The notes below the pieces were generated by a model. The model was not told the DNA's origin. It worked only from the letters and a program-made list of their open reading frames with translations, and did no database searches. A stretch of 64,000 bases of DNA, taken from the NCBI GenBank assembly GCA_030693325.1, contig JAUYAV010000019.1, positions 1,324-65,323 of the forward strand, in the 5' to 3' direction. The position numbers and the translations under genes are program-made. The stretch comes from a bacterium (GTDB taxonomy: Bacteria; Patescibacteriota; Minisyncoccia; UBA6257; MFKM01). Shown piece by piece: positions 4,138 through 48,319 of the stretch; the stretch's first letter is position 1; the number at the start of each line of letters is the position of its first letter.

Positions 4138-4289
4138 CTTAATCTGATGTAGCATAAAATAAATATTTAGATATAATTTAAGATTAATCCTAATAAATGC
4201 CAAGTATAAAAATTTAATAAACCCCGTTAGAAAGAGTAAGAATTTAAGTCTATCCGTCCTTTCCGAAAACAGAGCTATAAACTGAAAAA

Positions 4290-4331
4290 CTTTCTAACGG
4301 GGGTTGACAGGCGCTAGTTTATTAATATAAT
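4290..4331 (+). promoter_or_regulatory. Repeat arm CTTTCTAACGGGGGTTGACAGG carrying a sigma70-like promoter (TTGACA-16-TATAAT)
   Basis: TTGACA at 4304..4309, 16-nt spacer, TATAAT at 4326..4331, about 38 nt upstream of the ATG at 4370. Confidence 0.6.
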
Positions 4332-4560: not shown

Positions 4561-5709
4561 ATGCTTCCCTGCTTTTAAGATACTGGGTTTGTTGATAGAA
4601 ATTTTTTGACGCCAATCTTTAACGGTTTGGCCGTCTAAAGAAACCGCCCCCTGCTCAATTAATCGCTGGGCATCGGAAAGAGATTTAGCTAAATCGCATT
4701 TAACTAACAACTCTTTGGCCCCGATTGAGCAAGGGGTTATTTTTATGGTTTTGATTTGACTTGGGGGTTCTCCCTCTCTAAAAACTTTGATAAATTCTTC
4801 CTGGGCTTGGCCGGCTGTTTTATCTCCGTGATAAAATTTAACGATTTCCCGGGCTAATCTCAATTTTTGGTCTCGGGGGTTAAGACTGGCAATCTCTTCT
4901 TGCGACACATCGGTAAGTAATTCAAAATATCTGCTCATAATCTTATCCGGGATAGACATAATTTTTCCAAACATTTTAAACGGATCTTCGGTCAAGCCAA
5001 TATAATTATCGGAACTTTTACTCATTTTTTTTATCCCATCAATTCCCTCCAGTAAAGGCACCGTAATAATATCTTGCTCCGGCTGATTAAATTTCTGCTG
5101 GACTTTGCGGCCCATCAGCAGATTAAATTTTTGGTCTGTTCCTCCAATTTCCACGTCTGCCTTGAGTTCAACAGAGTCATAGCCCTGCAAAAGGGGATAA
5201 ATCAACTCTAAAAGGCTTATATCGGCTTTCGCTTCTATTCGGCGCTGGAATTCTTCTCTTTCAATTAATTGGGCGTAAGTAAAACGGGAAGTAATTTTAA
5301 CAACGAAATCCATTCCTTTTTTGGCATACCATTCGCTGTTGTAACGGATTTCAACTTTTTTTATATCTAAAATTTTAGCGGCCTGTTGGATATAATCCGC
5401 CATATTTTTTTGAACCTCGGCTTTCGTTAATGGTTTCCGGGCGTTGGCTCTGCCAGACGGATCGCCGATCATCGCCGTGAAATCGCCCACCAAAAGAATA
5501 ACCTGGTGGCCTAAATCCTGAAATTGTTTTAATTTCAAAAGAGAAACACTATGGCCCAAATGAAAATCTGGTGAAGTCGGGTCAATGCCGAATTTTACTC
5601 TCAATTTCGCTCCGGATTTTAATTTCTCTTCTAAGTGTTTTTTTAGAATCACCTCTTCCACTCCTTTGGTCAGTAAATTTTTAACTTTGTCCTCTAATTT
5701 ATCTTTCAT
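4537..5709 (-). CDS. tyrS: Tyrosyl-tRNA synthetase
   Basis: HIGH-type motif DFHLGH and KMSKS motif (KMSKSS); C-terminal S4-like region. Confidence 0.9.
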   Translation of the reverse strand: MKDKLEDKVKNLLTKGVEEVILKKHLEEKLKSGAKLRVKFGIDPTSPDFHLGHSVSLLKLKQFQDLGHQVILLVGDFTAMIGDPSGRANARKPLTKAEVQKNMADYIQQAAKILDIKKVEIRYNSEWYAKKGMDFVVKITSRFTYAQLIEREEFQRRIEAKADISLLELIYPLLQGYDSVELKADVEIGGTDQKFNLLMGRKVQQKFNQPEQDIITVPLLEGIDGIKKMSKSSDNYIGLTEDPFKMFGKIMSIPDKIMSRYFELLTDVSQEEIASLNPRDQKLRLAREIVKFYHGDKTAGQAQEEFIKVFREGEPPSQIKTIKITPCSIGAKELLVKCDLAKSLSDAQRLIEQGAVSLDGQTVKDWRQKISINKPSILKAGKHHFIKLTP

Positions 5710-8241: not shown

Positions 8242-9351
8242 TTAAGCCCTGATCGGCATCAGAATATAAAACCAATTTTTGTCAGCCGGAGACTTAACCA
8301 CCGCCGGTTGATTGTCATTATTGAATCCCAGGATAATTTCTTTGTCCTCCAATGATTTCAGCCCGTCAAGCAAATACCGGCCATTAAATGAAATATCCAG
8401 ATTATGCCCGTTAATTTTAGCCGGCAATAAATAATGGTTTTCCCCCACGGCGCTATCGGCGGAATAAATTTCCAAAAATTTTTTATTTTCTCCGATTTTT
8501 AATTTTATCTCGTTGACCCTGCCGGAAAAAATACTGGTCAATTTTAAAGCATTCACTAATTCGCTTTTATTAATCACTAATTCGCTTTTAAGCTCCTGAG
8601 GGATAATGCTTTGATAATCGGGAAATTTTCCTTCTATCAACCGCGAAATAATTTCCAATTCCCCTGTTTTGAAAAGTATCTGGTTTTGGTTTATAGAAAT
8701 ATCCAATTCGCTGTCATTAGGGACTGTTTTTAAAATCTCTTGAAGAGTTTTTAGGGGAATTATAATTTCAAACCCTTCTTCAAAATTACTTTTAAATTGG
8801 TCGGCGGAAATAATTTTCTCCGATAATCTAAAACTATCCGTGCCGGTCAATTTTAGATAATCAAGCTGATAACTAAATAAACACCCGTTGATTTCCGGCC
8901 GAATTTCAGAATACTGAATACTATTAATAATTTTTAATAAGGCTGATTTAAAAATCCCTGAATTTATTTTTATAAATTTATCAGTGTGGTTGATCTTTGG
9001 AATAATCGGAAAATCCTCGGGATTCAACCCTTGAATAGTCGCTTCGTAATTATCGGTTTTTATTAATAAATTAAAATCTTTATTTTCTAAGGTAATTCTC
9101 TCAGTTGTTAAATTATTGACGATATTGGAAAAAATATTTAAAGGGACCGTTATTAAGCCGCCTTCTATGATTTTCCCGGGCGCCCGATAATTAACCGCTA
9201 ATTCCAAATTAGTGCCCGAAAAATTAATTTTATTATCCTCGCTCTTAATGAGAATATTTTTTAAAATCGGCAAATTTAAGTTATCCCCAATTGCGCCCTC
9301 AATAGAACGCAATGCTTCTTTTAAATTATTATTTAATATAATTAATCTCAT
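8242..9351 (-). CDS. dnaN: DNA polymerase III beta sliding clamp
   Basis: 369 aa with three-domain length; MRLIILNNNLKEALRSIEGAIG...; directly downstream of dnaA. Confidence 0.85.
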   Translation of the reverse strand: MRLIILNNNLKEALRSIEGAIGDNLNLPILKNILIKSEDNKINFSGTNLELAVNYRAPGKIIEGGLITVPLNIFSNIVNNLTTERITLENKDFNLLIKTDNYEATIQGLNPEDFPIIPKINHTDKFIKINSGIFKSALLKIINSIQYSEIRPEINGCLFSYQLDYLKLTGTDSFRLSEKIISADQFKSNFEEGFEIIIPLKTLQEILKTVPNDSELDISINQNQILFKTGELEIISRLIEGKFPDYQSIIPQELKSELVINKSELVNALKLTSIFSGRVNEIKLKIGENKKFLEIYSADSAVGENHYLLPAKINGHNLDISFNGRYLLDGLKSLEDKEIILGFNNDNQPAVVKSPADKNWFYILMPIRA

Positions 9352-9554
9352 AATAGTAGTAGTGTTGGTTTAATTTGTGGAAATATTATTTTTTTTGTTT
9401 CTAAATATAGATTTTTACTTAAAATAACTTGTGGAAATTTATTGGAAAACCGGGGATAAAATAAATTATTTTTTTCCGCCCGCCGGCGGATATATTTTTT
9501 TATCCTCTTTTTATTAAGTTAATATTAACAATAAATTCACAACTTATCCAGATA
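9352..9554. promoter_or_regulatory. AT-rich dnaA-dnaN spacer with DnaA-box-like motifs (candidate oriC part)
   Basis: tttgtggaaat (x2; reverse complement ATTTCCACA), cacaacTTATCCAGA, ggggataaaat; strongly AT-rich. Confidence 0.5.
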
Positions 9555-10952
9555 TTAAACAGATTTATTTATTAATTCTTTTATTAAAATTATCTTTTGG
9601 TTTAAAACCGGATTTTGGTTAATTTCTTTGGAAATTTTTTCGCAGGCGTGAATAACAGTGGTGTGGTCTCTTTTCCCGAGTTTTTCTCCGATAAAAGGAT
9701 AGGAGGCGTTAAGCATTTCCCGAAGCAGGTACATGGCAATCTGGCGCGGTTCAACTACCTCTTTCTTTTTACATTTGGCGATTAAATCGGGTAGTGAGAT
9801 TTCAAAAAATTCAGCTACGGTTTTAACTACGTCATTGGGGTTGATGTTCTTTGTATTAACCCGCACCACTTCATTAATAATTTCTTCCAGTTTCTGGCCG
9901 TCAATTTTCTCTTTCCTGACATCCTCTAAAAAAACAACCTTATTTAAAACTCCTTCTAATTCCCGAATGTTCTTTTTAACCTTACTGGCTATTAATTCCA
10001 GGGTTTTGTCGTCTATTTGCCATCCATTTTCCTGGGATTTTGCCCTTAAAATGGCTAATCTGGTCTCATAATCGGGATAGCTGATATCAGCTATCATTCC
10101 GCCCTCAAAACGCGAGCGCAATCGTTCTTCAATAGTGGGGATGGCGGCCGGCGGGCGGTCTGAGGACATTATTATCTGTTTGTTGTTCTCATATAAAGCA
10201 TTAAACGTATGGAAAAATTCTTCTTCGGTTCTTTCTTTGCCGCCGATAAATTGAATATCGTCAATTATTAAAACATCAACATCCCGATATTTTCTTTTAA
10301 TATCGTCCATTTTTTTATTGCGAATCGCCCAAATAACATCATTGACGAATTTTTCCGAAGTGACATAAAAAACTTTTACTTTATTTTTATAAATACTTTT
10401 AATTTCATTGCCGACTGCCTGGAGAAGGTGGGTTTTGCCCAAGCCAACGCCGCCGTAAATAAAAAGAGGATTGTATTTTTTGCCAACATCTTTCATCACC
10501 GCCATCATCGCGGCATAAGCCAATTCATTGGAAGAGCCGACAATAAAAGATTTCAAGGTATAGCGGGGGTTGAGATTTGATTCCGGGTCAATTTTTAATT
10601 CAATCAGTGGTCTTTGATTGTCGGTTTCAATAATAGCTTCCGAATCAATCCCCTTCTTGATTTTTATCAAATTTTTTTGAGGCTGGCTTTCAACAGTGTA
10701 TTCAACAACCCTGATAGAACTGTCTAAATTTCTTAATGACCCTAAAATTAATTTATGATAACGGTTTTTTACCCACTCTTTCGCAAAATTATTCGGCAGT
10801 CCGACTAATACCGTGCCGTCGCCTTCTTTTTTATCAATAAGACGACTGTTCTTTAGCCAAGTGAGAAAATCCGGCCGCGAAAGTTGGATTTCGATTTCTC
10901 CTAAAACGCCTTGCCAGAGATCGTTAAGGTTTATGTCAGTCATTGTTTTCAT
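9555..10952 (-). CDS. dnaA: Chromosomal replication initiator DnaA
   Basis: Walker A GGVGLGKTHLLQAVG; Walker B VLIIDDIQF; C-terminal DNA-binding domain; divergent from rpmH. Confidence 0.93.
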   Translation of the reverse strand: MKTMTDINLNDLWQGVLGEIEIQLSRPDFLTWLKNSRLIDKKEGDGTVLVGLPNNFAKEWVKNRYHKLILGSLRNLDSSIRVVEYTVESQPQKNLIKIKKGIDSEAIIETDNQRPLIELKIDPESNLNPRYTLKSFIVGSSNELAYAAMMAVMKDVGKKYNPLFIYGGVGLGKTHLLQAVGNEIKSIYKNKVKVFYVTSEKFVNDVIWAIRNKKMDDIKRKYRDVDVLIIDDIQFIGGKERTEEEFFHTFNALYENNKQIIMSSDRPPAAIPTIEERLRSRFEGGMIADISYPDYETRLAILRAKSQENGWQIDDKTLELIASKVKKNIRELEGVLNKVVFLEDVRKEKIDGQKLEEIINEVVRVNTKNINPNDVVKTVAEFFEISLPDLIAKCKKKEVVEPRQIAMYLLREMLNASYPFIGEKLGKRDHTTVIHACEKISKEINQNPVLNQKIILIKELINKSV

Positions 10953-25562: not shown

Positions 25563-27080
25563 TTAAGAGATTATTTTTAAAACGCAATTATTAAATTGTT
25601 CGCCGCGGTCAAATTCGTTTTGAAAAAGATTGAAACTAGCCGCTCCCGGAGAAAGTAAAATTATATCCCCTGTTTGGGAAGTTTGGTAGGCTTTTTTAAC
25701 CGCTTCCTCCATGTTTTTGGCTTCGGAAAAATTTACCCCGTTAGAAGTTTTAGACAGAAAAAATTTCTTAAAAATTTTTTCTGTTCCTGAACGTTGAATT
25801 GAATTCCTATTTTGGATAAAACTCGGTAAGTTGTTGTTCGATTTAATGTTCGCCAGACTTCTAACGGGGTTTATCTTCAAATATTTTTTCAGTTTTTCCG
25901 TGGCGCTGCCTGGCAAAAGAATTAATTTTTTGACTTGGCGATTGATTTTTTCCGCCAAATTTTTATAATCAAGATTTTTATTCTCGCCTCCGGCAATCAA
26001 AATAATCGGCCGCTGATATTTTTTAGCCAAAAACTCAAGGCCTGTCAAAACCGCCGTGGGGTTAGTGGCGGTTGTGTCATTGATAAAAATTATATTTTTT
26101 AATGTTCTGATTATTTCCTGGCGTCCGGCCAACCCGCGAAAATTTTTGACCACTTTGGTAATTTCTTTTTTCGGCACCCCCAAAATTTTTGCCGCCTCGG
26201 CCGCCAAAGCGATATTAATTTCCAAGGGCAATAAATTTTTATTTTTAATAAAGTGTTTTTTAGCTTTAGCCCCGTTTAGCGGGACTTTGGCATTTTTTAT
26301 CAGTTTAACCAAAAATTTATCATTGCCGTTGATAATCAAATGGTCTTTCGGTTTTTGGTATAAAAATATGTTGGTTTTAGCTTTGGCATAATTTTTTAGC
26401 GAGGCATAACGGTTAAGATGATCGGGGAAAATATTGGTAATGATGGCAATTGGCGGACTCTTTTCTATCAAAGCCAAGTCTTCCAGTTGAAAACTGGAAA
26501 GCTCGGCTACCACGGCATCTTCAGGTTTGATTTTCGAAAGTTTTCCCAAAAATGATTCCCGGATATTTCCTAAAAGCCAAACTTTGGGGTATTTTTTCTT
26601 TAAAATCTCCGCCAAAAGAGCGGCGGTGGTTGATTTTCCCTTGGTTCCGGTGATGCCGACAATTAAAGCCGGTGCATGGCTGAAAAAAATAATAGTATCG
26701 GTGGTAATCGGTATGCCCTTGGCCCGGGCTTTTTCCAAAAAGGGGTCATCCCAGGGGATAGCCGGGTTTTTGACAATTAGATCGCTGGTTAAGAAGTTAA
26801 CCAAGCGGTGTTTGCCGAGTACATATTTAATATTGGGGAAACGAGCAAGCTCATTTAGTGAAGCAGAAAGGGCTTCTTTGGTTTTTAAGTCGGTTACTGT
26901 CACTTTAGCCCCCTGACGGCTGAAAAACTTGGCGATACCTATCCCGCCGCCGTTTAAACCCAGGCCGAAAATAAGGACTTTTTGAGGGCTACCTGCTCTG
27001 TTTACCGGACAGACAGGCGATAGGCGGGGAATATTGTCTTTCTGTTTAGTTTTGCTATAATAAAAGTTATTGGTACTCAT
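25563..27080 (-). CDS. murD: UDP-N-acetylmuramoylalanine--D-glutamate ligase MurD
   Basis: Mur ligase P-loop GITGTKGKSTTAALL; N-terminal Rossmann GLGLNGGG. The N-terminal ~35 aa may be over-called. Confidence 0.8.
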   Translation of the reverse strand: MSTNNFYYSKTKQKDNIPRLSPVCPVNRAGSPQKVLIFGLGLNGGGIGIAKFFSRQGAKVTVTDLKTKEALSASLNELARFPNIKYVLGKHRLVNFLTSDLIVKNPAIPWDDPFLEKARAKGIPITTDTIIFFSHAPALIVGITGTKGKSTTAALLAEILKKKYPKVWLLGNIRESFLGKLSKIKPEDAVVAELSSFQLEDLALIEKSPPIAIITNIFPDHLNRYASLKNYAKAKTNIFLYQKPKDHLIINGNDKFLVKLIKNAKVPLNGAKAKKHFIKNKNLLPLEINIALAAEAAKILGVPKKEITKVVKNFRGLAGRQEIIRTLKNIIFINDTTATNPTAVLTGLEFLAKKYQRPIILIAGGENKNLDYKNLAEKINRQVKKLILLPGSATEKLKKYLKINPVRSLANIKSNNNLPSFIQNRNSIQRSGTEKIFKKFFLSKTSNGVNFSEAKNMEEAVKKAYQTSQTGDIILLSPGAASFNLFQNEFDRGEQFNNCVLKIIS

Positions 27081-28245: not shown

Positions 28246-29790
28246 TTATCTGGTTTCTTCTCTGACTCGGTATTGATAGGCCTCGGCTAAATGGTCGGCG
28301 GTGATTTTTTCCGAATTTTCAAAATCGGCGATGGTCCGGCTGATTTTTAAAATCCGGTAATAACTGCGGCCGGAAAGAAAAGTTTTTTCCAAAACATTTT
28401 TCAAAAAGTTTTCCGCTGAAGCGTCAAAATTAGCCGCGGCTTCCACTTGCTTGGAAGTCATTTCGCTGTTGGTGTAAATTTTCGGCTGGAAATTTTGGAA
28501 ACGCCGGGCTTGGATTTCTCTGGCGGCCGCGATTTTCTCTTTTAAAGTTTTATTGGCTTCGCCGGCTGAGGAATTTTTATTTCTTAATTCGCTGATTTCC
28601 ACCCGCGGCACTTCAATCTGGATATCAATGCGGTCCAGGAGCGGTCCGGAGATTTTTTTTTGATAACGGAAAACATCATAAGCGCTGCAGCGGCATTCTT
28701 TTTGCGGGTCGCCGAAATAACCGCAGGGACAGGGATTCATCGCCGCTATCAGAGAAAAATTTGCCGGAAAAGTCAAAGATTTTTTGGCGCGGCTGATATT
28801 AATAAATCCGTTTTCAAGCGGCTGGCGCAGGCTTTCCAAAAGGTCGCGGTGGAATTCCGGAAATTCATCTAAAAATAACAGGCCGCGGTGGGCCAAACTG
28901 ATTTCTCCGGGTCTGGGATTGGTTCCGCCGCCGACAAGAGAAACCAAAGAAGAACTGTGATGCGGCGACCGGAAAGGCCGATAATTAATAAAAGAATTTT
29001 TTAAAGATAATCCCGCGGCGGAATAAATTTGATTGATTTCAATGGCTTCGCTTAAAGAAAGCGGCGGCAGAAGAGAAATTAAGGCCTGGGCCATCATGGT
29101 TTTGCCGGTGCCGGGCGGACCGATCATTAAAAGATTGTGGCCGCCTGCCGCGGCGATAGCCATGGCCCGTTTGGCGTTTTCCTGGCCCTTGATATCGCCA
29201 AAATCCGTCAGAGAAAATTGGTTGTCGGGAATAAAATCAGTGGCGGGTTGAGTCGGAATAATCGCCCGGTTTTCCAGATGATTGATTAAGTCGCAAAGAT
29301 TTTTTACGGGAATAACGGAAATTTCTTTAACAATCGCCGCTTCGGCGGCGTTGGCTTCTGGCGCAAAAACATATTTGAAACCCAATTTTTTTGCCAATTG
29401 GGCAATATTCAAACCGCCGTTGATGGGCCGCAGGCCGCCGTCTAACGAAAGTTCGCCCACAAAAATTTTGTCTTTGGTCTCAAACTCTTTGACTTGCTCG
29501 CTGGCTAAAAGATAAGCCAAGGCGATGGCCAAATCAAATTGCGAGCCGGTTTTTTTGATGTCCGCCGGCGCCAGATTAACGGTGATGCGCCGGTTTTCTT
29601 TAGTTGGCGGGTTAATGCCGCTGTTTTTCAAAGCCGAATTAACCCGCTCTTTAGCTTCGGAAACCGCTTTATCCGCCAAACCGACAATATTAAAAGCGTG
29701 GAGACCGACATTGATATCGGTCTCCACTTCAATTAATTCCGCGTTAATACCGTCAAGTTCGGCTGAAAATATTCTGGCCGGGCCTTTCAT
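28246..29790 (-). CDS. comM: YifB/ComM-family Mg-chelatase-like AAA+ ATPase
   Basis: Lon-like N-terminal domain; Walker A GPPGTGKT; 514 aa as typical for ComM. Confidence 0.85.
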   Translation of the reverse strand: MKGPARIFSAELDGINAELIEVETDINVGLHAFNIVGLADKAVSEAKERVNSALKNSGINPPTKENRRITVNLAPADIKKTGSQFDLAIALAYLLASEQVKEFETKDKIFVGELSLDGGLRPINGGLNIAQLAKKLGFKYVFAPEANAAEAAIVKEISVIPVKNLCDLINHLENRAIIPTQPATDFIPDNQFSLTDFGDIKGQENAKRAMAIAAAGGHNLLMIGPPGTGKTMMAQALISLLPPLSLSEAIEINQIYSAAGLSLKNSFINYRPFRSPHHSSSLVSLVGGGTNPRPGEISLAHRGLLFLDEFPEFHRDLLESLRQPLENGFINISRAKKSLTFPANFSLIAAMNPCPCGYFGDPQKECRCSAYDVFRYQKKISGPLLDRIDIQIEVPRVEISELRNKNSSAGEANKTLKEKIAAAREIQARRFQNFQPKIYTNSEMTSKQVEAAANFDASAENFLKNVLEKTFLSGRSYYRILKISRTIADFENSEKITADHLAEAYQYRVREETR

Positions 29791-36857: not shown

Positions 36858-37682
36858 ATGTTCTATTATCTCAACGGAAAAATTGTTGAAAAAGACAAGG
36901 CCGTCATTCCAGTCAACGACCTCGGCCTGCTACGGGCTTACGGTGTTTTTGATTATTTAAAAACTTACAACCGGAGACCTTTTCATTCAGAAGACCATAT
37001 TAATCGGTTTTTCCGTTCCGCTTCCCGCTTTAATCTGAAAATTCCGGTTTCCAAAAAAGAATTACAGCGGATTATTTTTGAATTGCTCGCCAGGAATAAA
37101 TCTTTGGAAGAATTGAGTTTCCGGATGGTTTTGACCGGCGGCCAAACCGAAGACACCAAGACCTCCAAAAAACCCACCTTTTTTATTCTTGTTAACGAAG
37201 CCCATTCGTATCCCGAAGAAGTTTTTGAAAAGGGAATAAAATTGGCGACTCTGGATTACGGCCGGGAATTTCCGGAAATAAAAACCATTAATTATCTTTT
37301 GGCGGTTTCGCAATGGAAAAATATTTTGAAGAAAAAGGCTTCTGAAATTCTTTATATTTCCAAAGGAAAAGTTCTGGAGGCCTCCACTTCCAATTTCTTT
37401 ATGGTGAAAAATAAAGTTTTATTCACGCCGAAAAACGAAATTTTAGAAGGAGTCACCAGAAAATTAGTCATCAAACTGGCCAAAGAAAACAAAATCAAAG
37501 TTATTGAAAAAGATATTTCTTTGAAAGAAGTTTTAAAAGCCGATGAATGTTTTCTTACCGCTACCGACAAAGAAGTTTTGCCGGCAGTTAAAATTGATAA
37601 TCAAATTATCGGTAACGGCCGGCCCGGCGAACAAACCAAAAAACTCCTAAACTTATATAGAGAACTTAGAGATAATTTTTGA
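36858..37682 (+). CDS. Class IV aminotransferase (branched-chain / D-amino-acid aminotransferase family)
   Basis: Fold-type IV PLP-enzyme pattern (RAYGVFDY...; EASTSNFF). Start set at the second ATG, after the hairpin at 36790..36850. Confidence 0.7.
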   Translation: MFYYLNGKIVEKDKAVIPVNDLGLLRAYGVFDYLKTYNRRPFHSEDHINRFFRSASRFNLKIPVSKKELQRIIFELLARNKSLEELSFRMVLTGGQTEDTKTSKKPTFFILVNEAHSYPEEVFEKGIKLATLDYGREFPEIKTINYLLAVSQWKNILKKKASEILYISKGKVLEASTSNFFMVKNKVLFTPKNEILEGVTRKLVIKLAKENKIKVIEKDISLKEVLKADECFLTATDKEVLPAVKIDNQIIGNGRPGEQTKKLLNLYRELRDNF

Positions 37683-37752
37683 GCGGGTAACGGGAGTCGA
37701 ACCCGTGTTGTCTGATTGGCAACCAGACGTAATACCGTTATACGATACCCGC
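37682..37752 (-). tRNA. tRNA-Gly (GCC)
   Basis: Minus-strand cloverleaf: acceptor gcgggta/tacccgc; anticodon loop ttGCCaa; T-arm acggg-ttcgact-cccgt. Confidence 0.8.
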
Positions 37753-37801
37753 GTTTTCTTCTAATTGTTTGGCGGCACGCTTAGCGCGCCGTTTGCCACG
37801 C

Positions 37802-37999
37802 TTAGCGTGGCGATTGCTCCGTTGGTCCCTTTACCGAAGGAGCTCCGTCCGGACCTTTAAAGCCAGACGTTTCATTTTGGTTTTCCGGCGCCGGGACAGA
37901 TTTCTCTGCGGCGGTTTTCAACGACTGCGGCGTAAAAAAGAAATACAGGCCCAGCAAAACTATCAGAATAATAATATAAATAATAATTCTTTTCCACAT
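37802..37999 (-). CDS. Small single-TM protein (65 aa, hypothetical)
   Basis: MWKRIIIYIIILIVLLGLYFFF... hydrophobic helix; weak support. Confidence 0.3.
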   Translation of the reverse strand: MWKRIIIYIIILIVLLGLYFFFTPQSLKTAAEKSVPAPENQNETSGFKGPDGAPSVKGPTEQSPR

Positions 38000-38041
38000 A
38001 GTAGTTGATTATACCAATTCCGGATTTTTCTGAAAAGGCGC

Positions 38042-38066
38042 GGGGGTTGACCCCGTTAGAAGTCTA
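38042..38066. repeat. Inverted-repeat element arm GGGGGTTGACCCCGTTAGAAGTCTA (identical to 4112..4136)
   Basis: Exact 25-mer repeat; the partner arm GACTTCTAACGGGGTTGACA at 38169..38188 gives a 14-bp inverted repeat flanking ~100 bp. Confidence 0.8.
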
Positions 38067-38168
38067 TCAAATTCTGAGTTCAGTAATAATTAGCTGAGTC
38101 TTGCCTGAAATGGAAATTTAATTCATTATTCAGGAATAGAAAAAATTTATTAAATTTTTTCTGTCCAA

Positions 38169-38215
38169 GACTTCTAACGGGGTTGACAAAAATTTTATTT
38201 TTACTATACTATAAA
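38169..38215 (+). promoter_or_regulatory. Repeat arm with TTGACA -35 and downstream TATACT -10-like box
   Basis: gacttctaacggggTTGACAaaaattttatttttacTATACTat. Confidence 0.45.
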
Positions 38216-38271
38216 AATTATATAGATCTTTAAAAATTTTAAACTATCCGTTTTAAACGAAAGGAGAAAAG

Positions 38272-38508
38272 ATGAAAAAGCCGAACCTTAATTTAAATGA
38301 GAGTGAAATTCATCAAATACTGGGAGGTGAAAAAATAGAAGAAATTTGCAACCGTCATTTACTTGCAGGCAATGAGAAAAAAACGATTAATCTTTTTTTT
38401 CAGGAAATCAGATTAAATAATTTAGAAAGGGCGAAGAGGGTCATTGCGGACATTTCTGATTTAATCAGTTTTCCGAAAAAAGAGAAAACCAAAATTAGCT
38501 GTTCTTAA
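38272..38508 (+). CDS. Small protein with double-glycine-type leader (candidate bacteriocin/pheromone precursor)
   Basis: Strong RBS aaaggagaaaagATG. N-terminus MKKPNLNLNESEIHQILGG matches the LSxxELxxIxGG leader consensus. Hairpin terminator follows. Confidence 0.5.
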   Translation: MKKPNLNLNESEIHQILGGEKIEEICNRHLLAGNEKKTINLFFQEIRLNNLERAKRVIADISDLISFPKKEKTKISCS

Positions 38509-38539
38509 AAGGCGCTTCAGTGTTTTAAAATGGAATTTC

Positions 38540-38572
38540 GCCCCGTCAATAAAATGACGGGGTTTATTTTTT
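38540..38572 (+). terminator. Rho-independent terminator
   Basis: ccccgtca-ataaaa-tgacgggg + tttatttttt. Confidence 0.75.
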
Positions 38573-38580
38573 AATAAAAT

Positions 38581-38665
38581 GAACCCCGTTAGAAATTCCA
38601 GAGATTTAATTTCAGGAAATTTTAATTTTCAAGATTAGCCCATTTGTGATTTCTAACGGGGTGAA
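38581..38665. repeat. Third inverted pair of CCCCGTTAGAA / TTCTAACGGGG arms flanking ~50 bp
   Basis: gaaccccgttagaaattcc ... gatttctaacggggtgaa. Confidence 0.7.
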
Positions 38666-38702
38666 TTAAAATTATCCCTATAACATCTATAACATATAGA
38701 CA

Positions 38703-38775
38703 GGGCGCTTAGCTCAGCTGGTAGAGCGTCGCATTTACACTGCGAAGGCCTGAGGTTCGAACCCTCAAGCGCCCA
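38703..38775 (+). tRNA. tRNA-Val (TAC)
   Basis: gggcgct...agcgccca; D-loop agctggta; anticodon stem tcgca/tgcga with loop ttTACac; T-loop ttcgaac. Confidence 0.85.
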
Positions 38776-38979
38776 CTAATTCCGAAATAAAAATCAACTC
38801 CTTTTAATAGGTGAAATATTTAGGTTAAGATCTGGCGTCTTTTTCTGTTTGGATTTAGTTTACTGGGAAATTACGATTTTTCCTTAAATAAACCCTATTT
38901 TAAAAACAACTTTAAAATCTGATAGAAAGCTTAGGTTTTATCCACTTACTGAGGAATGTAGATAAAACCTACGTTTTTA

Positions 38980-39165
38980 AAATGTTTCACATAAAAGTGT
39001 GAAACATTGGTTTTTTACAAATTTTCGCAGACAGGTCAGTAATGCGATGAAATCTACGCTTTTGGGATTTTGGGCAAAAAATGAAAAAGTGAGTGTTTGC
39101 GCAGAAACATTATTTTTTGGAAAAAGCTTCAAAAATACAAAAAAGCGATGTTTCTGCGCAAACAT
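38980..39165. repeat. Cluster of three related palindromes AATGTTTC...GAAACATT / TGTTTGCGCAGAAACA
   Basis: aatgtttcacataaaagtgtgaaacatt (38982..39009); gtttgcgcagaaacat (39092..39107) and its reverse complement atgtttctgcgcaaac (39147..39162) within a larger hairpin. Confidence 0.6.
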
Positions 39166-39199
39166 CGCTTTTTGAAAATCTTGGAAGAGATTTTTAATT

Positions 39200-39682
39200 T
39201 TAGGGAAACAAATGAATATTTTTATCAAAAATTCCCCATTTATAAAGCCGGTATAATGATTTATACCTATCAGAAACATCCGGGTCGCTTCCGATTTTCT
39301 CTAACCAATCAATAAATTGTATGGCCTTATATCCCTTTAATTTTTTATAGAAAAAGGGGATTATAATATCTTTCAACTGCTCAAAATCTCTTACTACCAA
39401 CGCCGCCATTCTTCCTCTTTTATAGCCATCGCCAGTCCATGCTTTATGATTATAAATTGGATTTTTTAAATCTAAAGAATCTCTCACCATTTTTAACAAA
39501 TTTTCGTCTCGCTCATGCATTCCTATATAAAAAGTAGGCATTTTACACTTTCTACCGTTCTTTTGGCGCCATCCAGTATGGAAACTAAAACAGCCTTCGC
39601 CAGTAACTAAGCCCCTGATATAATCATTGGTTAAAGTTTTTTTGTTCAGGATGGTTTGTTTGTTGACGAACACTTCGCTCAT
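39200..39682 (-). CDS. Free-standing LAGLIDADG-type homing-endonuclease-like protein (single-motif, 160 aa)
   Basis: IRGLVTGEGCFSF matches the LAGLIDADG_3 motif (lAGfiDGEGsF); second conserved block IGMHERDENLLKMVRDSL; size fits homodimeric single-motif enzymes. Confidence 0.55.
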   Translation of the reverse strand: MSEVFVNKQTILNKKTLTNDYIRGLVTGEGCFSFHTGWRQKNGRKCKMPTFYIGMHERDENLLKMVRDSLDLKNPIYNHKAWTGDGYKRGRMAALVVRDFEQLKDIIIPFFYKKLKGYKAIQFIDWLEKIGSDPDVSDRYKSLYRLYKWGIFDKNIHLFP

Positions 39683-39728
39683 TTGATTTATTGTAGCACG
39701 GTGCTACACTATAATAAATAATAACACA

Positions 39729-40181
39729 ATGACTCAAAAAGCAGAATTAGGAAAATCAGGCGAAGATTTGGCCTGTGGGTATCTTGTGGATAAGGGTTAT
39801 AAGATTATTGAACGCAATTTCCGCAAACCCTGGGGAGAATTGGATATTATTGCCAAAAGCCCGGACAAAACCTTGGTTTTCGTGGAAGTTAAGACAATGA
39901 GGAAATTCGGCAATGAATTCGGCGACCAATCCGGCAATGATTTTGGAAGAGGGGCAAAATTGTCTTCCTACGGGAGGTCTGTTGTAGGGAGACCGGATTC
40001 AGGCATTGAGCCGGAAATGCAAATGACCCAGGCTAAAATAAAAAAAACAAAAAGAGCCGCTTCTTTATACGCCGGCGCCTTTCCGGAAAAAATAGACGAA
40101 AAGGCCGGCTGGAGGATTGATTTGCTTGCTTTGACAATCAACACAAAAGATTGTATAATAAATCATTATGAAAATATCTGA
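39729..40181 (+). CDS. yraN: YraN/UPF0102-family endonuclease-like protein with internal insertion
   Basis: GEDLACGYLVDKGYKIIERNFR...GELDIIA...LVFVEVKT matches the UPF0102 N-terminus. A ~40-aa Gly/Ser-rich insert follows. Confidence 0.6.
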   Translation: MTQKAELGKSGEDLACGYLVDKGYKIIERNFRKPWGELDIIAKSPDKTLVFVEVKTMRKFGNEFGDQSGNDFGRGAKLSSYGRSVVGRPDSGIEPEMQMTQAKIKKTKRAASLYAGAFPEKIDEKAGWRIDLLALTINTKDCIINHYENI

Positions 40182-40275
40182 AACGCGCAAGAAAGGCAGA
40201 CTAAAATTTTAATCTGCCTTTTTATATTCTCCTTCTATTTGATTTTAAAAATTATTGAAATATAATAAAATTAAT

Positions 40276-40350
40276 GGTGACCATGGTGTAATGGCAGCAC
40301 AAGGGTTTGTGGAGCCCTTCGAGGGAGTTCAATTCTCCTTGGTCACCCCA
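40276..40350 (+). tRNA. tRNA-His (GTG) with encoded G-1 and 3' CCA
   Basis: Anticodon stem agggt/gccct with loop ttGTGga. The extra 5' G pairs with C73 (8-bp acceptor). ...ggtcacc + cca is encoded. Confidence 0.8.
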
Positions 40351-40355
40351 AAAAA

Positions 40356-40688
40356 ATGAAAATATATAAAAAAATAATTCTCGGTTTTATTGTTGTGATT
40401 ATCATTTTGGGCTTGGTGGCTTTTTATTCTCCCATTCAGAATGTTTCCCAACCGCAACCCGCGCCTGAACCCGAAGAAAATTCTTCAGCTTCGCTTGATG
40501 CGCTTCCCGCAAGTTCAACTACTCCGGATTCTAATTCTATCAATCAAGTATCAACTTCTTCAGCTTCCGAGAAATCAAATTTTGAAGATATGTCCGGCTT
40601 TTCTGATTTGGATCAGGAAAGTGATTCGCTGAAAGAAATGGGAACCAGTAGCGACACAAGTATTGTTGATGATTTTTTAACGAACTAA
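40356..40688 (+). CDS. Membrane-anchored acidic Ser/Thr-rich protein (hypothetical)
   Basis: N-terminal TM helix; low-complexity S/T/D/E-rich tail. Confidence 0.4.
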   Translation: MKIYKKIILGFIVVIIILGLVAFYSPIQNVSQPQPAPEPEENSSASLDALPASSTTPDSNSINQVSTSSASEKSNFEDMSGFSDLDQESDSLKEMGTSSDTSIVDDFLTN

Positions 40689-40692
40689 ACAA

Positions 40693-41661
40693 GTGAAGAA
40701 AAAAGAGAATAAAAAGATTGTGGTTATCGGCGGCGGAACGGGAATTTTTGCTATTCTCAATGGTCTAAAAAATTATTTTGATGATATCTCAGCTGTTGTC
40801 ACTATGGCTGATGACGGAGGCTCTACCGGAATTTTGCGCGAGGAATTCGGGATTTTGCCCCCGGGCGATGCCCGCCGGGCGATTATCGCTTTGTCGCATT
40901 CAGACAATAAAATTTTTTCCGAGCTTTTTAATTATCGGTTTAAAGAAGGCAAGGGGCTGGCCGGCCATAGCTTAGGCAACTTGATGATCACGGCCTTGGA
41001 GCGGATTACAGGAAGCTTTGACGAGGCCGTCAGAGAAGCCAGTAAGATTTTCGGCTTGAAAGGAAAGGTGATTCCGGTGACTCTCCAGCAAACCCGGCTT
41101 TACGCCGAGCTGGAAAATGGAAAAATCGTCAGCCGGGAAACTAATATTGATATTCCCCAGCATGACGGCCATTTGAAAATAAAAAAGGTTTGGTTGAAAC
41201 CGGCGGTTAAAATAAATCCTGAAGCCGAAAAAGAAATCAAAAACGCTGACTTGATTATTATCGGTCCCGGCGATCTTTATACCAGTTTAATCCCTAATCT
41301 TTTGGTGAAAGGATTAAAAAATTCTTTAAAAAATAGCAAGGCTAAAATTATTTATTTTGTTAATTTGATGACCAAATACGGGGAGACCGACGGCTTTCGG
41401 ACTTCGGATTTTTTGAAAGTTTTGGAAAATTATTTAGGGGAAGGGGTCTTGGATTATATAGTGGTCAATAATAAAAAACCCGCTCCGGCCAGATTGCGGC
41501 CTTACGCTTTGGAGAAAGCTTATTGGGTGGAAAATGATTTCAAAAAAATAAACCGAAAGCCGGTTTTAATAAAAGCTGATCTCTTGCGGCCGCGGGGTTT
41601 TGCCAGGCACGACCCCGAAAAAACCGCTGCGGTCGTGAAAAAACTTTTCGCTATGTTATAA
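40693..41661 (+). CDS. yvcK: YvcK/CofD-like (UPF0052) gluconeogenesis-factor-family protein
   Basis: KIVVIGGGTG...VVTMADDGGSTG glycine-rich nucleotide-binding signature of the family. Confidence 0.8.
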   Translation: MKKKENKKIVVIGGGTGIFAILNGLKNYFDDISAVVTMADDGGSTGILREEFGILPPGDARRAIIALSHSDNKIFSELFNYRFKEGKGLAGHSLGNLMITALERITGSFDEAVREASKIFGLKGKVIPVTLQQTRLYAELENGKIVSRETNIDIPQHDGHLKIKKVWLKPAVKINPEAEKEIKNADLIIIGPGDLYTSLIPNLLVKGLKNSLKNSKAKIIYFVNLMTKYGETDGFRTSDFLKVLENYLGEGVLDYIVVNNKKPAPARLRPYALEKAYWVENDFKKINRKPVLIKADLLRPRGFARHDPEKTAAVVKKLFAML

Positions 41662-41990: not shown

Positions 41991-42059
41991 AAAAATTAAA
42001 AATTTAGTCATTGATTAAAAATTTTAAATTTAAAATTGTTTTATTGTAGAAAAAGTAAT

Positions 42060-45000
42060 ATGAATAAATCTAATACAGGATATACTCTCATCGAACTATT
42101 AATCTACACCGTTATCTTTGCCATCTCCGTCGGCGTCTTCTCCGGCGTCCTCATTACTTTCACCAGAGTTCAGACCCAGACTTCGGCTGATTCCGAGCTC
42201 ACCCAGCAGTTGTCGTTCGTCCAGTCAACTATCCAGCGGCTCGTCCGGGACAGCGCCAATATCCAAAATCCGGCCGGAGTCGCTTCTTCCAGTTTGGTCT
42301 TAAGAATGGCTTCTTCCTCTTTAGACCCCACCGTTATCTCCTCCGACGCCAACGGCATCTATCTCCAACAGGGCACAGGAGAAGTCATTCCTATCACCAA
42401 CAGCCAGGTCAAGGTTGCCCAGTTTGAGGCCATCAAATACGAAAACCCTAATGCCCACGCCATTGTCCAAGTCAATATTGCCTTAACCTACAACAGTCAG
42501 AATCCCTACCAGCAGATAACGAGAGCCCTTAAGATCGCCATCGGCAGAGTGTCCGCCGCCACCTTTGACGATAGTTTGATTCCCAATACCAACAATTCTT
42601 TTTCCCTGGGTGATGCCACTTACAAATGGAAAGACATCAACATTTCCAATCTCCTCAACGTGGGCCAGTTGATCACCGACCCCGTGGCCGGAGCCCAGAA
42701 CGGGTCTATCTATTACAATACTTCCTCCAGCGCTTTCCGGGGTTATGCCAACAGCGTTTGGTCTGTTCTTGGAGGCGTGGGCTGGGCCGCTTCCTCCACC
42801 AATATCTACAACACCAATGCCGGGAACGTGGGGATCGGCACCGCCAGCCCGGGTGATACCTTGGATGTAAACGGCTCTATTGTGACAACCGGAATCCAAG
42901 ACACCGGGAAAACTACCAAGATGTGGCTGTCAGGCGCTATAGCAGCCAAAACTCTTGATTATATGGAATACTCCTCCGACGCCAATGCACAGGTGGCGTA
43001 TGTGAGTAATGCTACTATAGCTAATCCAATATCTCATTGGAAGATGAATGATAATGCTGCTACTACAGTTGTGGTAGATTCAATGAGTGCTAACGCAGGA
43101 ACTGCTGATGCTAATACAGATACATTAGATACAACAGGAAAAATAAATGGTGCACTTTTGTGCAGTGTTTCACCAGTAAGAGCAGTAGCGATTGGTTCTA
43201 CGGGTTTTCCTGCTGTCAATACAGCGAGGTCTGTTAGTCATTGGGTATATCTTACATCAAGAAATGCTATTGGTGGAACATTCAGTTTTGGATATGGAAC
43301 AGGAGATACTAATAAGGGGTGGGCTATAGACGCAGGCGGAACATCTTCCACTACTCCATTACGAGTTGCTGGCTATTCAAATGATTGGTCTACTAATTAT
43401 ACTTTACCTTTAAATGAATGGCACCTTATTACTGTAACTTATGATGGAACGAATCTATTAAAATTATATGTGGATGGCACATTACAAGATTCTACTACAA
43501 GTTATACATTTGCTACTGTTCTTTCTACGGCGTATATTGGAGGAAATTGGGATGGCAGTGCTGCATATAGATTTAATGGTTCAATAGATGATGTTCGTAT
43601 CTATAATTTTGTTTTAACTGCAACAGAAGTCTTAGGACTCTATAATAATAATGCTGGAACTGAATTACAAAATCCTCAAGGAAATCTCCAATCCTACTCC
43701 GAAGCCACAATCAAAACTCAAGGAAGTTATGCGTTGAAGGCGGTGGCAGCGATAACGACTTCACTCAACAAAACCCTCACCCGCACCGTATCGCCTACGA
43801 TAGATTTATCTAACCAAACTCAGATCAAGTTTGATATTCGTGCCTCAAGACCTGGAAGCAATATCAAGATAGGCATCCATGATAGCGGCGGAACGACCAC
43901 TGAAACAACGCCTAATATTGCTTCAGCAGACACATATCAAACTATTACTTGGGATATATCGACGGTAACCAATGCCAATAAAGATGCGATAGACCAGATT
44001 ATAGTTACTATCATTAATGCGGACGCTGCCAATACTTTCTATATAGACAATTTGTATTCGCCTTCTGTCGGGTCGCTTGCCGATATCATATTCACGACAG
44101 CCAGTTCGGAAAGAATGAGGATTGATTCCTCCGGCAACGTCGGCATCGGGACGACGGTGCCGGGGGCGAAATTGCAAATAAGTAATGCTGACCAAACTTA
44201 TGCTCTTACGCTTGAAGATGCGAGAACTGGAAATGGACATTGGGTTAGATTTACAGAAGGCGGAACTGAAAAATGGGTTTTGGGACAAGTCGGCAGTGGA
44301 GTTGCTGGACGAGCAGATAATTTTGAAATTGTAAGTGGAAACGGCACTACTCGGTTGGCGATTGCTTCAACAACTGGCAACGTCGGCATCGGGACGACGG
44401 GGCCGGGGAGCCTTTTACACGTCAAGCATCCAAGTGGGAATCTGACGACCAGATTTGAGGGTTTGTCTAATTCGTATTCTTCAAAAATGTATTTAAGTTC
44501 CGTTTCCTCTGGCGATGGCGGCATGATGTATGATGCGGCTAGTAATCTCAGCAATATATTTTCCTACGGTGACCTCAGATTTAATGTAGGTACAGCAAAT
44601 ATATCGGGAGCAATTGGAAACGAGAGAATGGTTATACAACAAGGCGGCAACGTCGGCATCGGGACGACGGGACCGGGGTCACGTTTTACTGTTTATCAGA
44701 ATGTTTCCGGCGCTACAACGGCAGGAATGGAACTGAGATATGATGGTACTATCCACAGAAAGATGTATATGAATTACTCCGGTGATATGTATTTCTATAA
44801 TGGCACTAATGAGGGTTATCTTTCCTCAGCGGGCGTTTGGACAAACGCTTCTGACATCTCCTTAAAATCCAACATTCGGCCAATTGAGTATGGTTTGGCC
44901 GATCTATTAAAACTTCAACCGCGTTCTTACGAAATGAACGCTGACGGATTGCCTCAAATTGGGTTCGTGGCTCAAGAGGTTGAAGGGATAATTCCGGAAC

Positions 45001-45326
45001 TTGTTTCTATAGGTGGGCAAGGGTTAAAGGGTCTTTCTTATGGCAACCTGACTGCAATCAATACTAAAGGTATCCAAGAGCTTTACCAAAAGGTGCGTGG
45101 AGTTGATACGGCAGAAAATGGGGATGTAGCAATAACCGGCAACGTCGGCATCGGGACGGCGGATCCGGGAAGTTATAAATTAAAAGTCGTTGGAACTGTA
45201 AGTGTAAATAGCGGCACTAATATTATTTACAGATGCACAACCGCGGGAACGCTTCCAATCGGAGCATTAACAATAAATTCAGGAAATTGTGGCGCGAGTG
45301 CTGATACGGGGTTAAGTGTGAATTAG
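42060..45326 (+). CDS. Giant type IV pilin-like protein: class III signal + LamG-like lectin domain + GNVGIGTTxPG tail-fibre-like repeats + C-terminal S74 intramolecular chaperone domain
   Basis: Start at ATG 42060: MNKSNTG/YTLIELLIYTVIFAISVG prepilin signature with Glu at +5. LamG_3-like block (WHLITVTYDG...LYVDG...FNGSIDDVRIYN). Five GNVGIGT(A/T)xPG repeats. C-terminal SDISLKSNIRPIEYGLADLLKLQPRSYEMNADGLPQIGFVAQEVEGIIPELV matches the endosialidase-chaperone (Peptidase S74) consensus SDxRxK...GfIAQEVeevlPelV. Confidence 0.75.
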   Translation: MNKSNTGYTLIELLIYTVIFAISVGVFSGVLITFTRVQTQTSADSELTQQLSFVQSTIQRLVRDSANIQNPAGVASSSLVLRMASSSLDPTVISSDANGIYLQQGTGEVIPITNSQVKVAQFEAIKYENPNAHAIVQVNIALTYNSQNPYQQITRALKIAIGRVSAATFDDSLIPNTNNSFSLGDATYKWKDINISNLLNVGQLITDPVAGAQNGSIYYNTSSSAFRGYANSVWSVLGGVGWAASSTNIYNTNAGNVGIGTASPGDTLDVNGSIVTTGIQDTGKTTKMWLSGAIAAKTLDYMEYSSDANAQVAYVSNATIANPISHWKMNDNAATTVVVDSMSANAGTADANTDTLDTTGKINGALLCSVSPVRAVAIGSTGFPAVNTARSVSHWVYLTSRNAIGGTFSFGYGTGDTNKGWAIDAGGTSSTTPLRVAGYSNDWSTNYTLPLNEWHLITVTYDGTNLLKLYVDGTLQDSTTSYTFATVLSTAYIGGNWDGSAAYRFNGSIDDVRIYNFVLTATEVLGLYNNNAGTELQNPQGNLQSYSEATIKTQGSYALKAVAAITTSLNKTLTRTVSPTIDLSNQTQIKFDIRASRPGSNIKIGIHDSGGTTTETTPNIASADTYQTITWDISTVTNANKDAIDQIIVTIINADAANTFYIDNLYSPSVGSLADIIFTTASSERMRIDSSGNVGIGTTVPGAKLQISNADQTYALTLEDARTGNGHWVRFTEGGTEKWVLGQVGSGVAGRADNFEIVSGNGTTRLAIASTTGNVGIGTTGPGSLLHVKHPSGNLTTRFEGLSNSYSSKMYLSSVSSGDGGMMYDAASNLSNIFSYGDLRFNVGTANISGAIGNERMVIQQGGNVGIGTTGPGSRFTVYQNVSGATTAGMELRYDGTIHRKMYMNYSGDMYFYNGTNEGYLSSAGVWTNASDISLKSNIRPIEYGLADLLKLQPRSYEMNADGLPQIGFVAQEVEGIIPELVSIGGQGLKGLSYGNLTAINTKGIQELYQKVRGVDTAENGDVAITGNVGIGTADPGSYKLKVVGTVSVNSGTNIIYRCTTAGTLPIGALTINSGNCGASADTGLSVN

Positions 45327-47317: not shown

Positions 47318-48319
47318 TTATACTTTAGCCGGTGTTTGGGCCGCGGTGAGGGTCTGTTTTTTTATTTCTTCCAAAAGTTTTTTGTCTTCTTTTAATTTTA
47401 ATTTGGCGGCTTCAAGACCGACACCTAATTTTTCTTTATTGAAACTGTAAGTGTTGCCGGATTTGATGACACTGCCGTATTTAATAGCGGTATTCAAAAC
47501 ATCGGCTTCCGGGACGATTCCTTCGCCGAAAATAATTTCAAACTCGGCGATTTTAAAAGGCGCTGCCACTTTATTTTTGACTACCTTAGCATGCACCAGC
47601 TGGCCGATTATTTCTTCGCCTTTTTTCAGTTTGGCTTTGGCCCGGATATCAATTCTAATTGAAGAGAAAAATTTCAAAGCGCGGCCGCCGGGAGTCGTTT
47701 CGGGATTGCCGAACATAATTCCGATTTTCATCCGGATTTGGTTGATAAAAATAATGACGGTTTTTGATTTGGAAGTAATGGCAGTTAATTTTCGCAGGGC
47801 CTGGCCCATCATCCGGGCTTGCAAGCCCATAAATTGATCGCCCATTTCGCCTTCAATTTCCGCGCGGGGAGTAAGAGCCGCCACCGAGTCCACTACGATT
47901 AAGTCAATTATTCCTGACCTTACCAGACTTTCAACGATATTCAGGGCCTCTTCGCCGCTGTCCGGCTGAGAAAGTAAGAGGTCGTCGGTTTTTACCCCAA
48001 GTTTTCTTGCGTAATCAATATCAAAAGCGTGTTCGGCGTCAATATAAGCGGCTTTGCCGCCTTTTTTTTGAAGCTCGGCAATGGCATGAAGAGTTAAAGT
48101 GCTTTTGCCCGACATTTCCGGGCCGTAAATTTCCACCATCCGGCCGCAGGGCAGACCGCCTACTCCCAAAGCCAAATCCAGAGAAAAAGAGCCGGAAGGG
48201 ATGACCTCGGTTTTGCCGATTTTTTTATCTCCGAGCCGCATTATAGATCCTTCGCCGAATTTAGTTTTTAAACTTTCAATTAAATCGGAAAAATCTTTGT
48301 CTTTATTGGTTTTGTCCAT
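47318..48319 (-). CDS. recA: Recombinase RecA
   Basis: Walker [11 protein letters not shown]; L1/L2 loop regions; 333 aa. Confidence 0.95.

Follow-up and report, generated by a model that had tools for sequence, protein, structure and literature searches.

A free-standing LAGLIDADG gene of Candidate Phyla Radiation bacteria, probably a homing endonuclease, at the junction between yraN and a parS-like palindrome array

Here we analyse a 64-kb stretch of DNA from a bacterium of the Candidate Phyla Radiation (CPR; contig JAUYAV010000019.1 of assembly GCA_030693325.1), referred to below as the window, and in particular a small gene encoding a LAGLIDADG protein, named LAG, that lies between yraN and a non-coding array of palindromes resembling parS, the binding site of ParB. 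LAG is probably a homodimeric homing endonuclease that is active and free-standing, with the junction between yraN and the parS-like array as its address. The LAG family occupies one fixed chromosomal address in Paceibacteria-type CPR bacteria, a short interval that separates the yraN start from the array and is located ~28 kb from dnaA. We infer the cleavage activity of LAG, the identity of its target site and its route of transfer. A more specific version of this view, in which the family is specialised on the centromere-like array, cuts a parS-type palindrome (16-22 bp) that is held constant by ParB binding, and spreads by transformation among naturally competent CPR bacteria, with yraN and the array as homology arms and alleles replacing one another, is speculative and we regard it as rather unlikely.

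LAG is a genuine single-motif LAGLIDADG protein, as a first-pass annotation made from the letters of the window had proposed, and both profile searches and structure prediction bear this out. Residues 23-128 match Pfam PF00961 (LAGLIDADG_1) with E=3.5e-10 and 41.1 bits against a cut-off of 23.1, and a sequence search of the PDB retrieved single domains of I-PanMI, I-OnuI and relatives with E ~1e-11. An AlphaFold (AF2) model built on 24 homologues, with a predicted local distance difference test (pLDDT) score of 78, contains helices at residues 19-29, 57-69 and 100-110 and strands at 32-35, 50-56, 76-79 and 92-97, which together make up an alpha-beta-beta-alpha-beta-beta-alpha core; the N-terminal residues have pLDDT<50. 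The top 50 PDB matches found by Foldseek with this model are all LAGLIDADG enzymes, including the homodimeric I-TnaI. The motif helix reads YIRGLVTGEG and includes the predicted catalytic Glu29 (E29), which is kept in at least 90% of the 24 members of alignment A1, in which G24 and G30 are invariant. I-CreI, I-MsoI, I-CeuI and I-TnaI (PDB 5gkk) resemble LAG in having ~150-170 aa, one LAGLIDADG helix that ends in an acidic residue and the same core, and I-TnaI superimposes on the LAG model with a root-mean-square deviation of 3.4 Å over 118 columns. However, the I-CreI-type enzymes are products of group I introns located in rRNA or organelle genes, whereas LAG is free-standing and intergenic, and has an extra conserved C-terminal helical segment, WLEKIGSDPDVSDRYKSLYRLYKWG. 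The presence of one motif per chain implies a homodimer. Homodimers of the I-CreI type recognise a roughly symmetric (pseudo-palindromic) target of ~22 bp, and a dimer of identical chains with a near-symmetric target of similar length (~22 bp) is expected for LAG by analogy.

LAG is neither intron- nor intein-encoded, which agrees with the first-pass annotation. Covariance searches of the region 37000-41000 gave no Rfam match to a group I intron or another intron family, even at E<=10, and the LAG open reading frame (ORF) has a promoter on one side and a terminator on the other, no host gene is interrupted, and the tRNAs nearby are intact. A group I intron or known RNA was also considered for 38776-39199, where none was found at Rfam gathering thresholds or at E<=10; the single-sequence fold of this region is strong (z=-7) because of its palindromes, and a 17-sequence alignment of the non-coding array gave no consensus RNA fold. 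A likely -10 box, TACAAT, is located 7 nt ahead of the LAG ATG, which suggests a leaderless mRNA. The intact LAG copies are under strong purifying selection, with ratios of nonsynonymous to synonymous substitution (dN/dS) of 0.03-0.14. The 252 homologues that are 52-85% identical to LAG all come from Parcubacteria-type CPR lineages, and the subfamily is compact, with 12 cluster representatives at E<=1e-30 among 1.84 billion. As for carriage by phages, there was no sign of a phage vector: a phage collection contained no match and IMG/VR contained relatives at only 32-34% identity, in searches that did not include plasmids.

The constant neighbour of LAG is yraN. One genome per species was scanned, which gave 70 loci (these and the other loci compared are cited by L numbers where needed) with 66 informative family members, and yraN adjoins LAG in 64 of these 66. 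The two genes are head-to-head in 60 loci, separated by spacers of 11-182 bp, in tandem in three, and 0.9 kb apart in one. In the tandem loci (L053, L058 and L061) LAG lies upstream of yraN on the same strand, thus in the opposite orientation to the other 60, and overlaps the yraN start; a parS-like palindrome is located 41-51 nt upstream. Their orientation could have resulted from an independent insertion or from an inversion between flanking palindromes. Two family members, L050 and L065, are without yraN, and TGTTT-N6-AAACA sites are still present upstream of their LAG genes. The wider neighbourhoods of LAG vary among loci, as can be seen by comparing L002 with the window. Distant relatives (L073 and L074, with 28-29% identity) are found in rRNA operons, and the yraN-linked family is a clade separate from such rRNA-borne relatives, with an intergenic, non-rRNA address. 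The locus of the window is also present on a Logan contig and on a contig of an NCBI metagenome-assembled genome.

The first-pass annotation had instead connected LAG with tRNAs, as a possible relic, now inactive, of a mobile element that targeted a tRNA locus. Three tRNAs do lie within 2.7 kb, and they are intact as it had noted, being called by ARAGORN and matched full length by Rfam with 53-72 bits; in addition, tRNA-Val(tac) is found downstream of LAG in about one-third of 59 related loci. However, its distance is variable (10 nt to 3.6 kb), a pattern suggestive of normal synteny, and a tRNA lies within ~1.3 kb downstream of LAG in only ~9 of the 59, so that most loci are without a nearby tRNA. 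The adjacency of yraN in nearly all loci and the sporadic occurrence of tRNAs imply that the position of LAG is set by yraN and not by tRNAs. Moreover, LAG is intact, keeps the catalytic Glu and is under purifying selection, and its constant neighbours are yraN and the palindrome array. The comparative data have largely refuted the tRNA-relic explanation, which we regard as highly improbable. The region had also been called an accessory patch, which does not hold locally: the closest relative, L014, keeps the whole arrangement and is collinear with the window over 37.4-41.7 kb with 85-95% DNA identity.

The other side of the LAG address is formed by a conserved non-coding array, located beyond the 3' end of LAG in carriers and immediately ahead of yraN in non-carriers. 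In the window, its conserved element (Table 1) includes the palindrome AATGTTTCAC…GTGAAACATT at 38981-39008, GTAGRTTTYATC repeats (38931-38972 and 39046-39057) and a hairpin (38926-38977). The GTAGRTTTYATC repeats occur in both orientations, and the array also carries T-rich GGTTTTTCAG repeats. Searches with nhmmer (alignment A4) matched the element in LAG-bearing and LAG-less loci alike. The three related palindromes of the AATGTTTC…GAAACATT family that had been described at first all exist and belong to this array, and their arms are those of parS. The canonical ParB site parS is the 16-bp palindrome TGTTTCACGTGAAACA. Exact canonical copies are present upstream of yraN in the LAG-less loci L085, L104, L124 and L141, and some LAG-less loci have long palindrome arrays: L085 has ten copies, of which several match the canonical site exactly, and L089 has ~10 with a ~41-bp period. 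Exact parS sites and ~41-bp tandem arrays are features that these LAG-less loci share with ParB-parS systems and the sopC-type tandem arrays of the F plasmid, and the window locus is origin-proximal. It should be noted that no site within 3 mismatches of the canonical parS exists in the window: its copies keep the TGTTT/AAACA arms, but differ in the central six bases and have >3 mismatches, and they are putative sites recognised by sequence only.

The parS-like palindromes bracket LAG at both ends. In 60 LAG loci, 29 TGTTT-N6-AAACA sites fall at -200..+200 of the LAG start and 21 just after the stop, against a background of ~0.7 per 200-bp bin, and among 78 loci without LAG such sites are most frequent within 200 bp ahead of yraN. 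The more relaxed pattern TGTTT-N(4-10)-AAACA has three matches in the 64-kb window, two of which are located here. The palindrome at the start of LAG encodes the conserved tail F-x-(D/N)-K-Q, a predicted disordered segment that shorter homologues lack; the constraint is therefore probably on the DNA and not on the protein. At the other end, the block 39094-39164 is an indel relative to L014. Two palindromes of the window also score as terminators, and the one at 39149-39164, when extended to 39140-39173, scores as the intrinsic terminator of LAG. We also considered the array as oriC, and rejected this because dnaA, dnaN and the GC-skew minimum are located 28 kb away and the genes are not divergent around the array in 54 loci. 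A motif scan for a ParB gene found none in the window and one among 159 loci (near yraN). The most economical reading is that the array is an origin-proximal, centromere-like element putatively bound by ParB. As a side observation, the window contains a single perfect match to the DnaA-box consensus (TTATCCACA), at 39785-39793 on the minus strand, inside the yraN 5' coding region; two one-mismatch boxes (38938-38946 and 38957-38965) form the hairpin 38926-38977, and L034 has a perfect box directly after the LAG stop (5445-5453). These placements may be due to chance.

Comparison among loci indicates that LAG is accessory, and it shows signs of mobility. It is present in only two of 80 metagenome loci selected by YraN, a taxonomically uncontrolled sample in which ~10 loci could not be judged because their upstream sequence is too short. 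LAG-less YraNs are up to 62-70% identical to LAG-bearing ones, while the carriers have a mutual mean of 49%. The empty locus L076 and the filled locus L034 are homologous on both sides of LAG, sharing the yraN 5' end, the first palindrome and the GTAGGTTTTATC / CTTGTCCGTTTTGCGACA repeats, and L034 has LAG plus a small promoter in place of the ~70 bp that separate the yraN ATG from the first palindrome in L076. Decayed LAG copies are found beside intact yraN in three loci: L072 retains ~27 LAG codons followed by a five-copy palindrome array, L070 has an internal deletion and a frameshift, and only the C-terminal 59 aa are left in L069. In addition, the pairwise identities of LAG and YraN are poorly correlated (Spearman 0.14), and their neighbour-joining trees have 5 of 54 splits in common, all of them tip pairs; this discordance rests on two short genes and not on a genome-wide species tree.

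The flanks of LAG have a mosaic structure. The DNA identity between the window and L014 drops to ~50% from the yraN ATG (39731) to 39393 and then recovers, and this tract corresponds to the spacer and the first two-thirds of LAG from the N-terminus, the part that holds the DNA-contacting sheets. The spacer and this part of LAG have been swapped together. The LAG of L014 is 81% identical to that of L015, and their YraNs are only 56% identical. L043 and L048 share a block with 78-92% identity that runs from ~140 nt inside yraN, through LAG, to ~100 bp beyond, and their outer flanks are unalignable. The window with L014 and L015, and L043 with L048, are clear individual cases of discordance. The L043/L048 block is real, but recent horizontal transfer between the two was rejected because their synonymous divergence (dS) is 0.74.

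Such mosaic flanks, which resemble the outcome of co-conversion, together with presence and absence of a free-standing gene wedged between conserved sequences, are also known from the seg and mob genes of phage T4, although these encode GIY-YIG or HNH enzymes in a phage, whereas LAG is a LAGLIDADG protein of a cellular chromosome with no match in the phage collection. Free-standing phage homing endonucleases typically cut a conserved neighbour gene. By analogy, LAG may practise intronless homing against yraN itself: in genomes without LAG, it would cut the conserved 5' part of the yraN coding sequence, with the palindromes being bystanders that serve as ParB sites or terminators. That LAG always abuts the 5' end of yraN would fit this explanation, as would the start of the L043/L048 block ~140 nt inside yraN. 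However, L050 and L065 have LAG beside palindromes without yraN, the yraN ATG marks the precise end of the tract exchanged between the window and L014, and a homodimer is expected to prefer a (pseudo)palindrome, which the 5' end of yraN is not. We therefore judge homing against yraN to be quite unlikely.

The close association with yraN may also be explained if LAG, as the first-pass annotation had alternatively proposed, has been domesticated, and works with yraN either as a sequence-specific DNA binder that regulates the divergent promoter through the palindrome in the spacer, or as a nuclease partner that processes transformation or recombination intermediates. A preprint reports that YraN is a nuclease which resolves transformation D-loops together with ComM (bioRxiv 10.1101/2024.02.06.579203), and comM and recA are present in the same window, which speaks for domestication. 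The head-to-head arrangement in ~60 species with very short spacers and palindromes over both -10 boxes, the dN/dS values of 0.03-0.14, and the joint exchange, relative to L014, of the spacer and the N-terminal two-thirds of LAG also count in favour of domestication. As to regulation, the spacer palindrome was found as first described, except that it had been placed at 39690..39706, 2 nt to the left of its actual position. It overlaps both divergent -10 boxes, which makes it a candidate operator, and it is kept in the close LAG allele group L156, L157 and L159. Other loci have different palindromes at this position, and the TGTTATAC-N-GTATAACA type is common to LAGs that are only 51% identical. 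This type therefore does not track LAG specificity, a role of the spacer palindrome as a LAG-specific operator is not supported generally, and autoregulation by LAG is hypothetical.

Other observations also argue against domestication. Most yraN loci, including those of fairly close relatives, are without LAG, decayed LAG copies lie beside intact yraN, LAG occurs in both orientations and twice without yraN (L050 and L065), and the LAG and YraN phylogenies appear discordant. WhiA/DUF199 is a domesticated chromosomal DNA binder with a LAGLIDADG fold that has two degenerate domains without catalytic residues plus a helix-turn-helix (HTH). It provides a model for domestication of LAG, but LAG differs from it, and from known domesticated binders, in having kept the catalytic Glu, and it has no HTH. 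Taken together, we consider domestication unlikely.

The data are consistent with the following scenario for LAG as a homing endonuclease of the yraN/array junction. The LAG dimer would cut a ~20-22-bp (pseudo)palindromic site at this junction in LAG-less chromosomes, and the leading candidate for the target, which is a guess, is the yraN-proximal parS-like palindrome. Recombinational repair from a LAG-bearing copy, with the yraN 5' end and the array serving as homology arms, would then copy LAG into the chromosome. The donor copy would probably arrive by natural transformation, a plausible entry route given that ComM, YraN, RecA and a PilB-like ATPase are all encoded in the genome. In carriers, the insertion would displace or alter the target site and so confer immunity, and divergent LAG alleles may replace one another by the same route.

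Several points weigh against this scenario. The cleavage site of LAG is a conjecture, and its nuclease activity is a prediction from sequence. The palindromes are also present in LAG-less genomes, which means that another protein, ParB or similar, must bind them, and they are intact in carriers; both facts make them primarily elements of the host. Should they be the target, the intact copies that flank LAG require a further explanation for immunity. Because they are host palindromes, some of which double as terminators, the association with LAG could just reflect its insertion point. The LAG/YraN tree discordance is noisy, as both genes are short, and no recent transfer has been caught, since dS is already 0.7 between the most similar alleles. 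The purifying selection and the compact bidirectional promoter shared with yraN would equally suit a gene that is beneficial to the host, and the patchy distribution of LAG could be due to vertical descent with repeated loss.

Table 1. Positions of the features discussed in the window, and of the array counterparts in other loci
Feature	Position	Strand	Remarks
tRNA-Gly(gcc)	37681-37752	minus	intact, ARAGORN
MITE-like palindromic element, ~135 bp	38047-38186 (inverted pair 38050-38183)		ends TTGACCCCGTTAGAAGTCT / AGACTTCTAACGGGGTTGACA
Small ORF, 78 aa	38272-38508	plus	LNESEIHQILGG motif (...ILGG), resembles double-glycine leader
MITE-like element, short ~90-bp member of the same inverted-repeat family	38578-38667		absent from L014
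tRNA-Val(tac)	38703-38776	plus	intact, ARAGORN
Conserved non-coding element	38793-39092		92% identity to L014
Array palindrome	38981-39008		within the conserved element
parS-like palindromes 3' of LAG	39094-39109 and 39149-39164		TGTTTGCGCAGAAACA and its reverse complement; 25-nt inverted repeat
LAG, free-standing single-motif LAGLIDADG endonuclease gene	39200-39682	minus	160 aa, motif YIRGLVTGEGCFSF
parS-like palindrome at the start of LAG	39657-39672	minus	TGTTCGTCAACAAACA, LAG codons 4-9
Spacer palindrome	39692-39708		TGTAGCAC-G-GTGCTACA; 17 bp, in 46-bp LAG-yraN spacer
yraN (UPF0102, PD-(D/E)xK nuclease)	39729-40181	plus	Pfam PF02021, E=1.5e-19; divergent from LAG
tRNA-His(gtg)	40277-40350	plus	intact, ARAGORN
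parS-like variants other than canonical TGTTTCACGTGAAACA and the window's TGTTTGCGCAGAAACA			TGTTTCGCGCGAAACA, TGTTTGCCGGCAAACA
Array counterpart, L076	250-515
Array counterpart, L034	5440-5760
Array counterpart, L081	3163-3445
Array counterpart, L089	3380-3960
Array counterpart, L085	560-1190

The yraN gene of the window has an insert, as the first-pass annotation had noticed, but its size is ~28-34 aa rather than ~40 aa. It is located at ~39903-40004, in a loop whose length varies among relatives (alignment A2), consists partly of a 12-nt tandem repeat, and is shared with L014 and partly with L033. The insert is a lineage-specific expansion of this variable loop, and the predicted catalytic D...E-x-K residues (D39, E53 and K55), which are invariant in the alignment, are intact.

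The two inverted pairs resembling miniature inverted-repeat transposable elements (MITEs), which had also been recognised at first, represent a genuine palindromic repeat family with insertion polymorphism. Their core, CCCCGTTAGAA, occurs 9 times in the window, at 4 loci, versus 1.4 expected, and none of 100 shuffles reached 9. The ~135-bp element aligns over its full length with a copy at 25733-25872 (alignment A5) that is translated in frame inside murD (25563-27080, minus strand), in the Mur ligase C-terminal domain, where it adds ~43 residues at a position at which the MurD of S. agalactiae has seven; MurD 3lk7 has nothing that corresponds to residues 397-446. At its right end, the element at 38047-38186 carries a -35 box, TTGACA, of an outward promoter facing the 78-aa ORF. 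A composite copy at 4115-4308 has two direct left ends (4121 and 4222) and one right end (4292), and the latter supplies a perfect outward TTGACA-17-TATAAT promoter. Rickettsia palindromic elements are similar in being palindromes of ~90-135 bp that are found both between genes and in frame, as in murD here, but they are unrelated in sequence and belong to another phylum; the comparison here covers only 4 loci in 64 kb, with no transposase identified.

The 78-aa ORF was present as predicted. Its LNESEIHQILGG motif fits the double-glycine leader consensus, which makes the ORF a candidate leader peptide; the ORF has no Pfam match and only three homologues (100, 79 and 70% identity), making it lineage-restricted, and in one of these GA replaces the GG. 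Among the 27 window ORFs that were scanned, a subset of the total, there was no C39 transporter of the kind (C39-peptidase ABC exporter) that would be cognate to such a leader. A 65-aa ORF at 37802-37999 on the minus strand encodes an N-terminal hydrophobic helix, has 77-97% DNA identity in L014, and overlaps an alternative plus-strand ORF of 79 aa with a 21-nt tandem repeat (37776-37817). Farther away, 42036-45326 encodes a 1096-aa protein with Laminin_G_3 and a C-terminal Peptidase_S74 (endosialidase chaperone), which resembles phage tail fibres and has a chromosomal context. The window also includes dnaN and dnaA (8242-10952), with the cumulative GC-skew minimum at ~9-12 kb, comM, encoding a helicase of the YifB/Mg-chelatase family (28246-29790), and recA (47318-48319). 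ComM, YraN and RecA constitute the set proposed for transformation D-loop processing, and all three are encoded in this origin-proximal window.

Free-standing homing endonucleases and LAGLIDADG genes of CPR bacteria are both already known. The LAGLIDADG proteins of CPR rRNA insertions, such as I-ShaI, are single-domain homodimers with evidence of homing (PMC11270868). They belong to the same radiation as LAG and are likewise single-domain, but they lie inside 16S and 23S rRNA genes, whereas the LAG subfamily is separate and free-standing, and has one address in ~60 species. In the literature that could be searched, we came across no report linking a LAGLIDADG subfamily to yraN or to parS-type arrays.

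In summary, LAG offers a natural system in which to study how a homing endonuclease can survive when neither an intron nor an intein harbours it, whether palindromes of the centromere type can function as homing sites, and how such genes move between uncultured, probably transformable bacteria. The comparison of LAG loci has also revealed, beside yraN, a conserved and previously undescribed non-coding array in which parS-like palindromes are combined with iteron-like repeats. The LAG proteins are, by prediction, small natural homodimeric meganucleases with diverged DNA-binding halves, which could serve as scaffolds. If the proposed targeting is true, a partition site, and not an rRNA or protein-coding gene, would be the target of a homing endonuclease.

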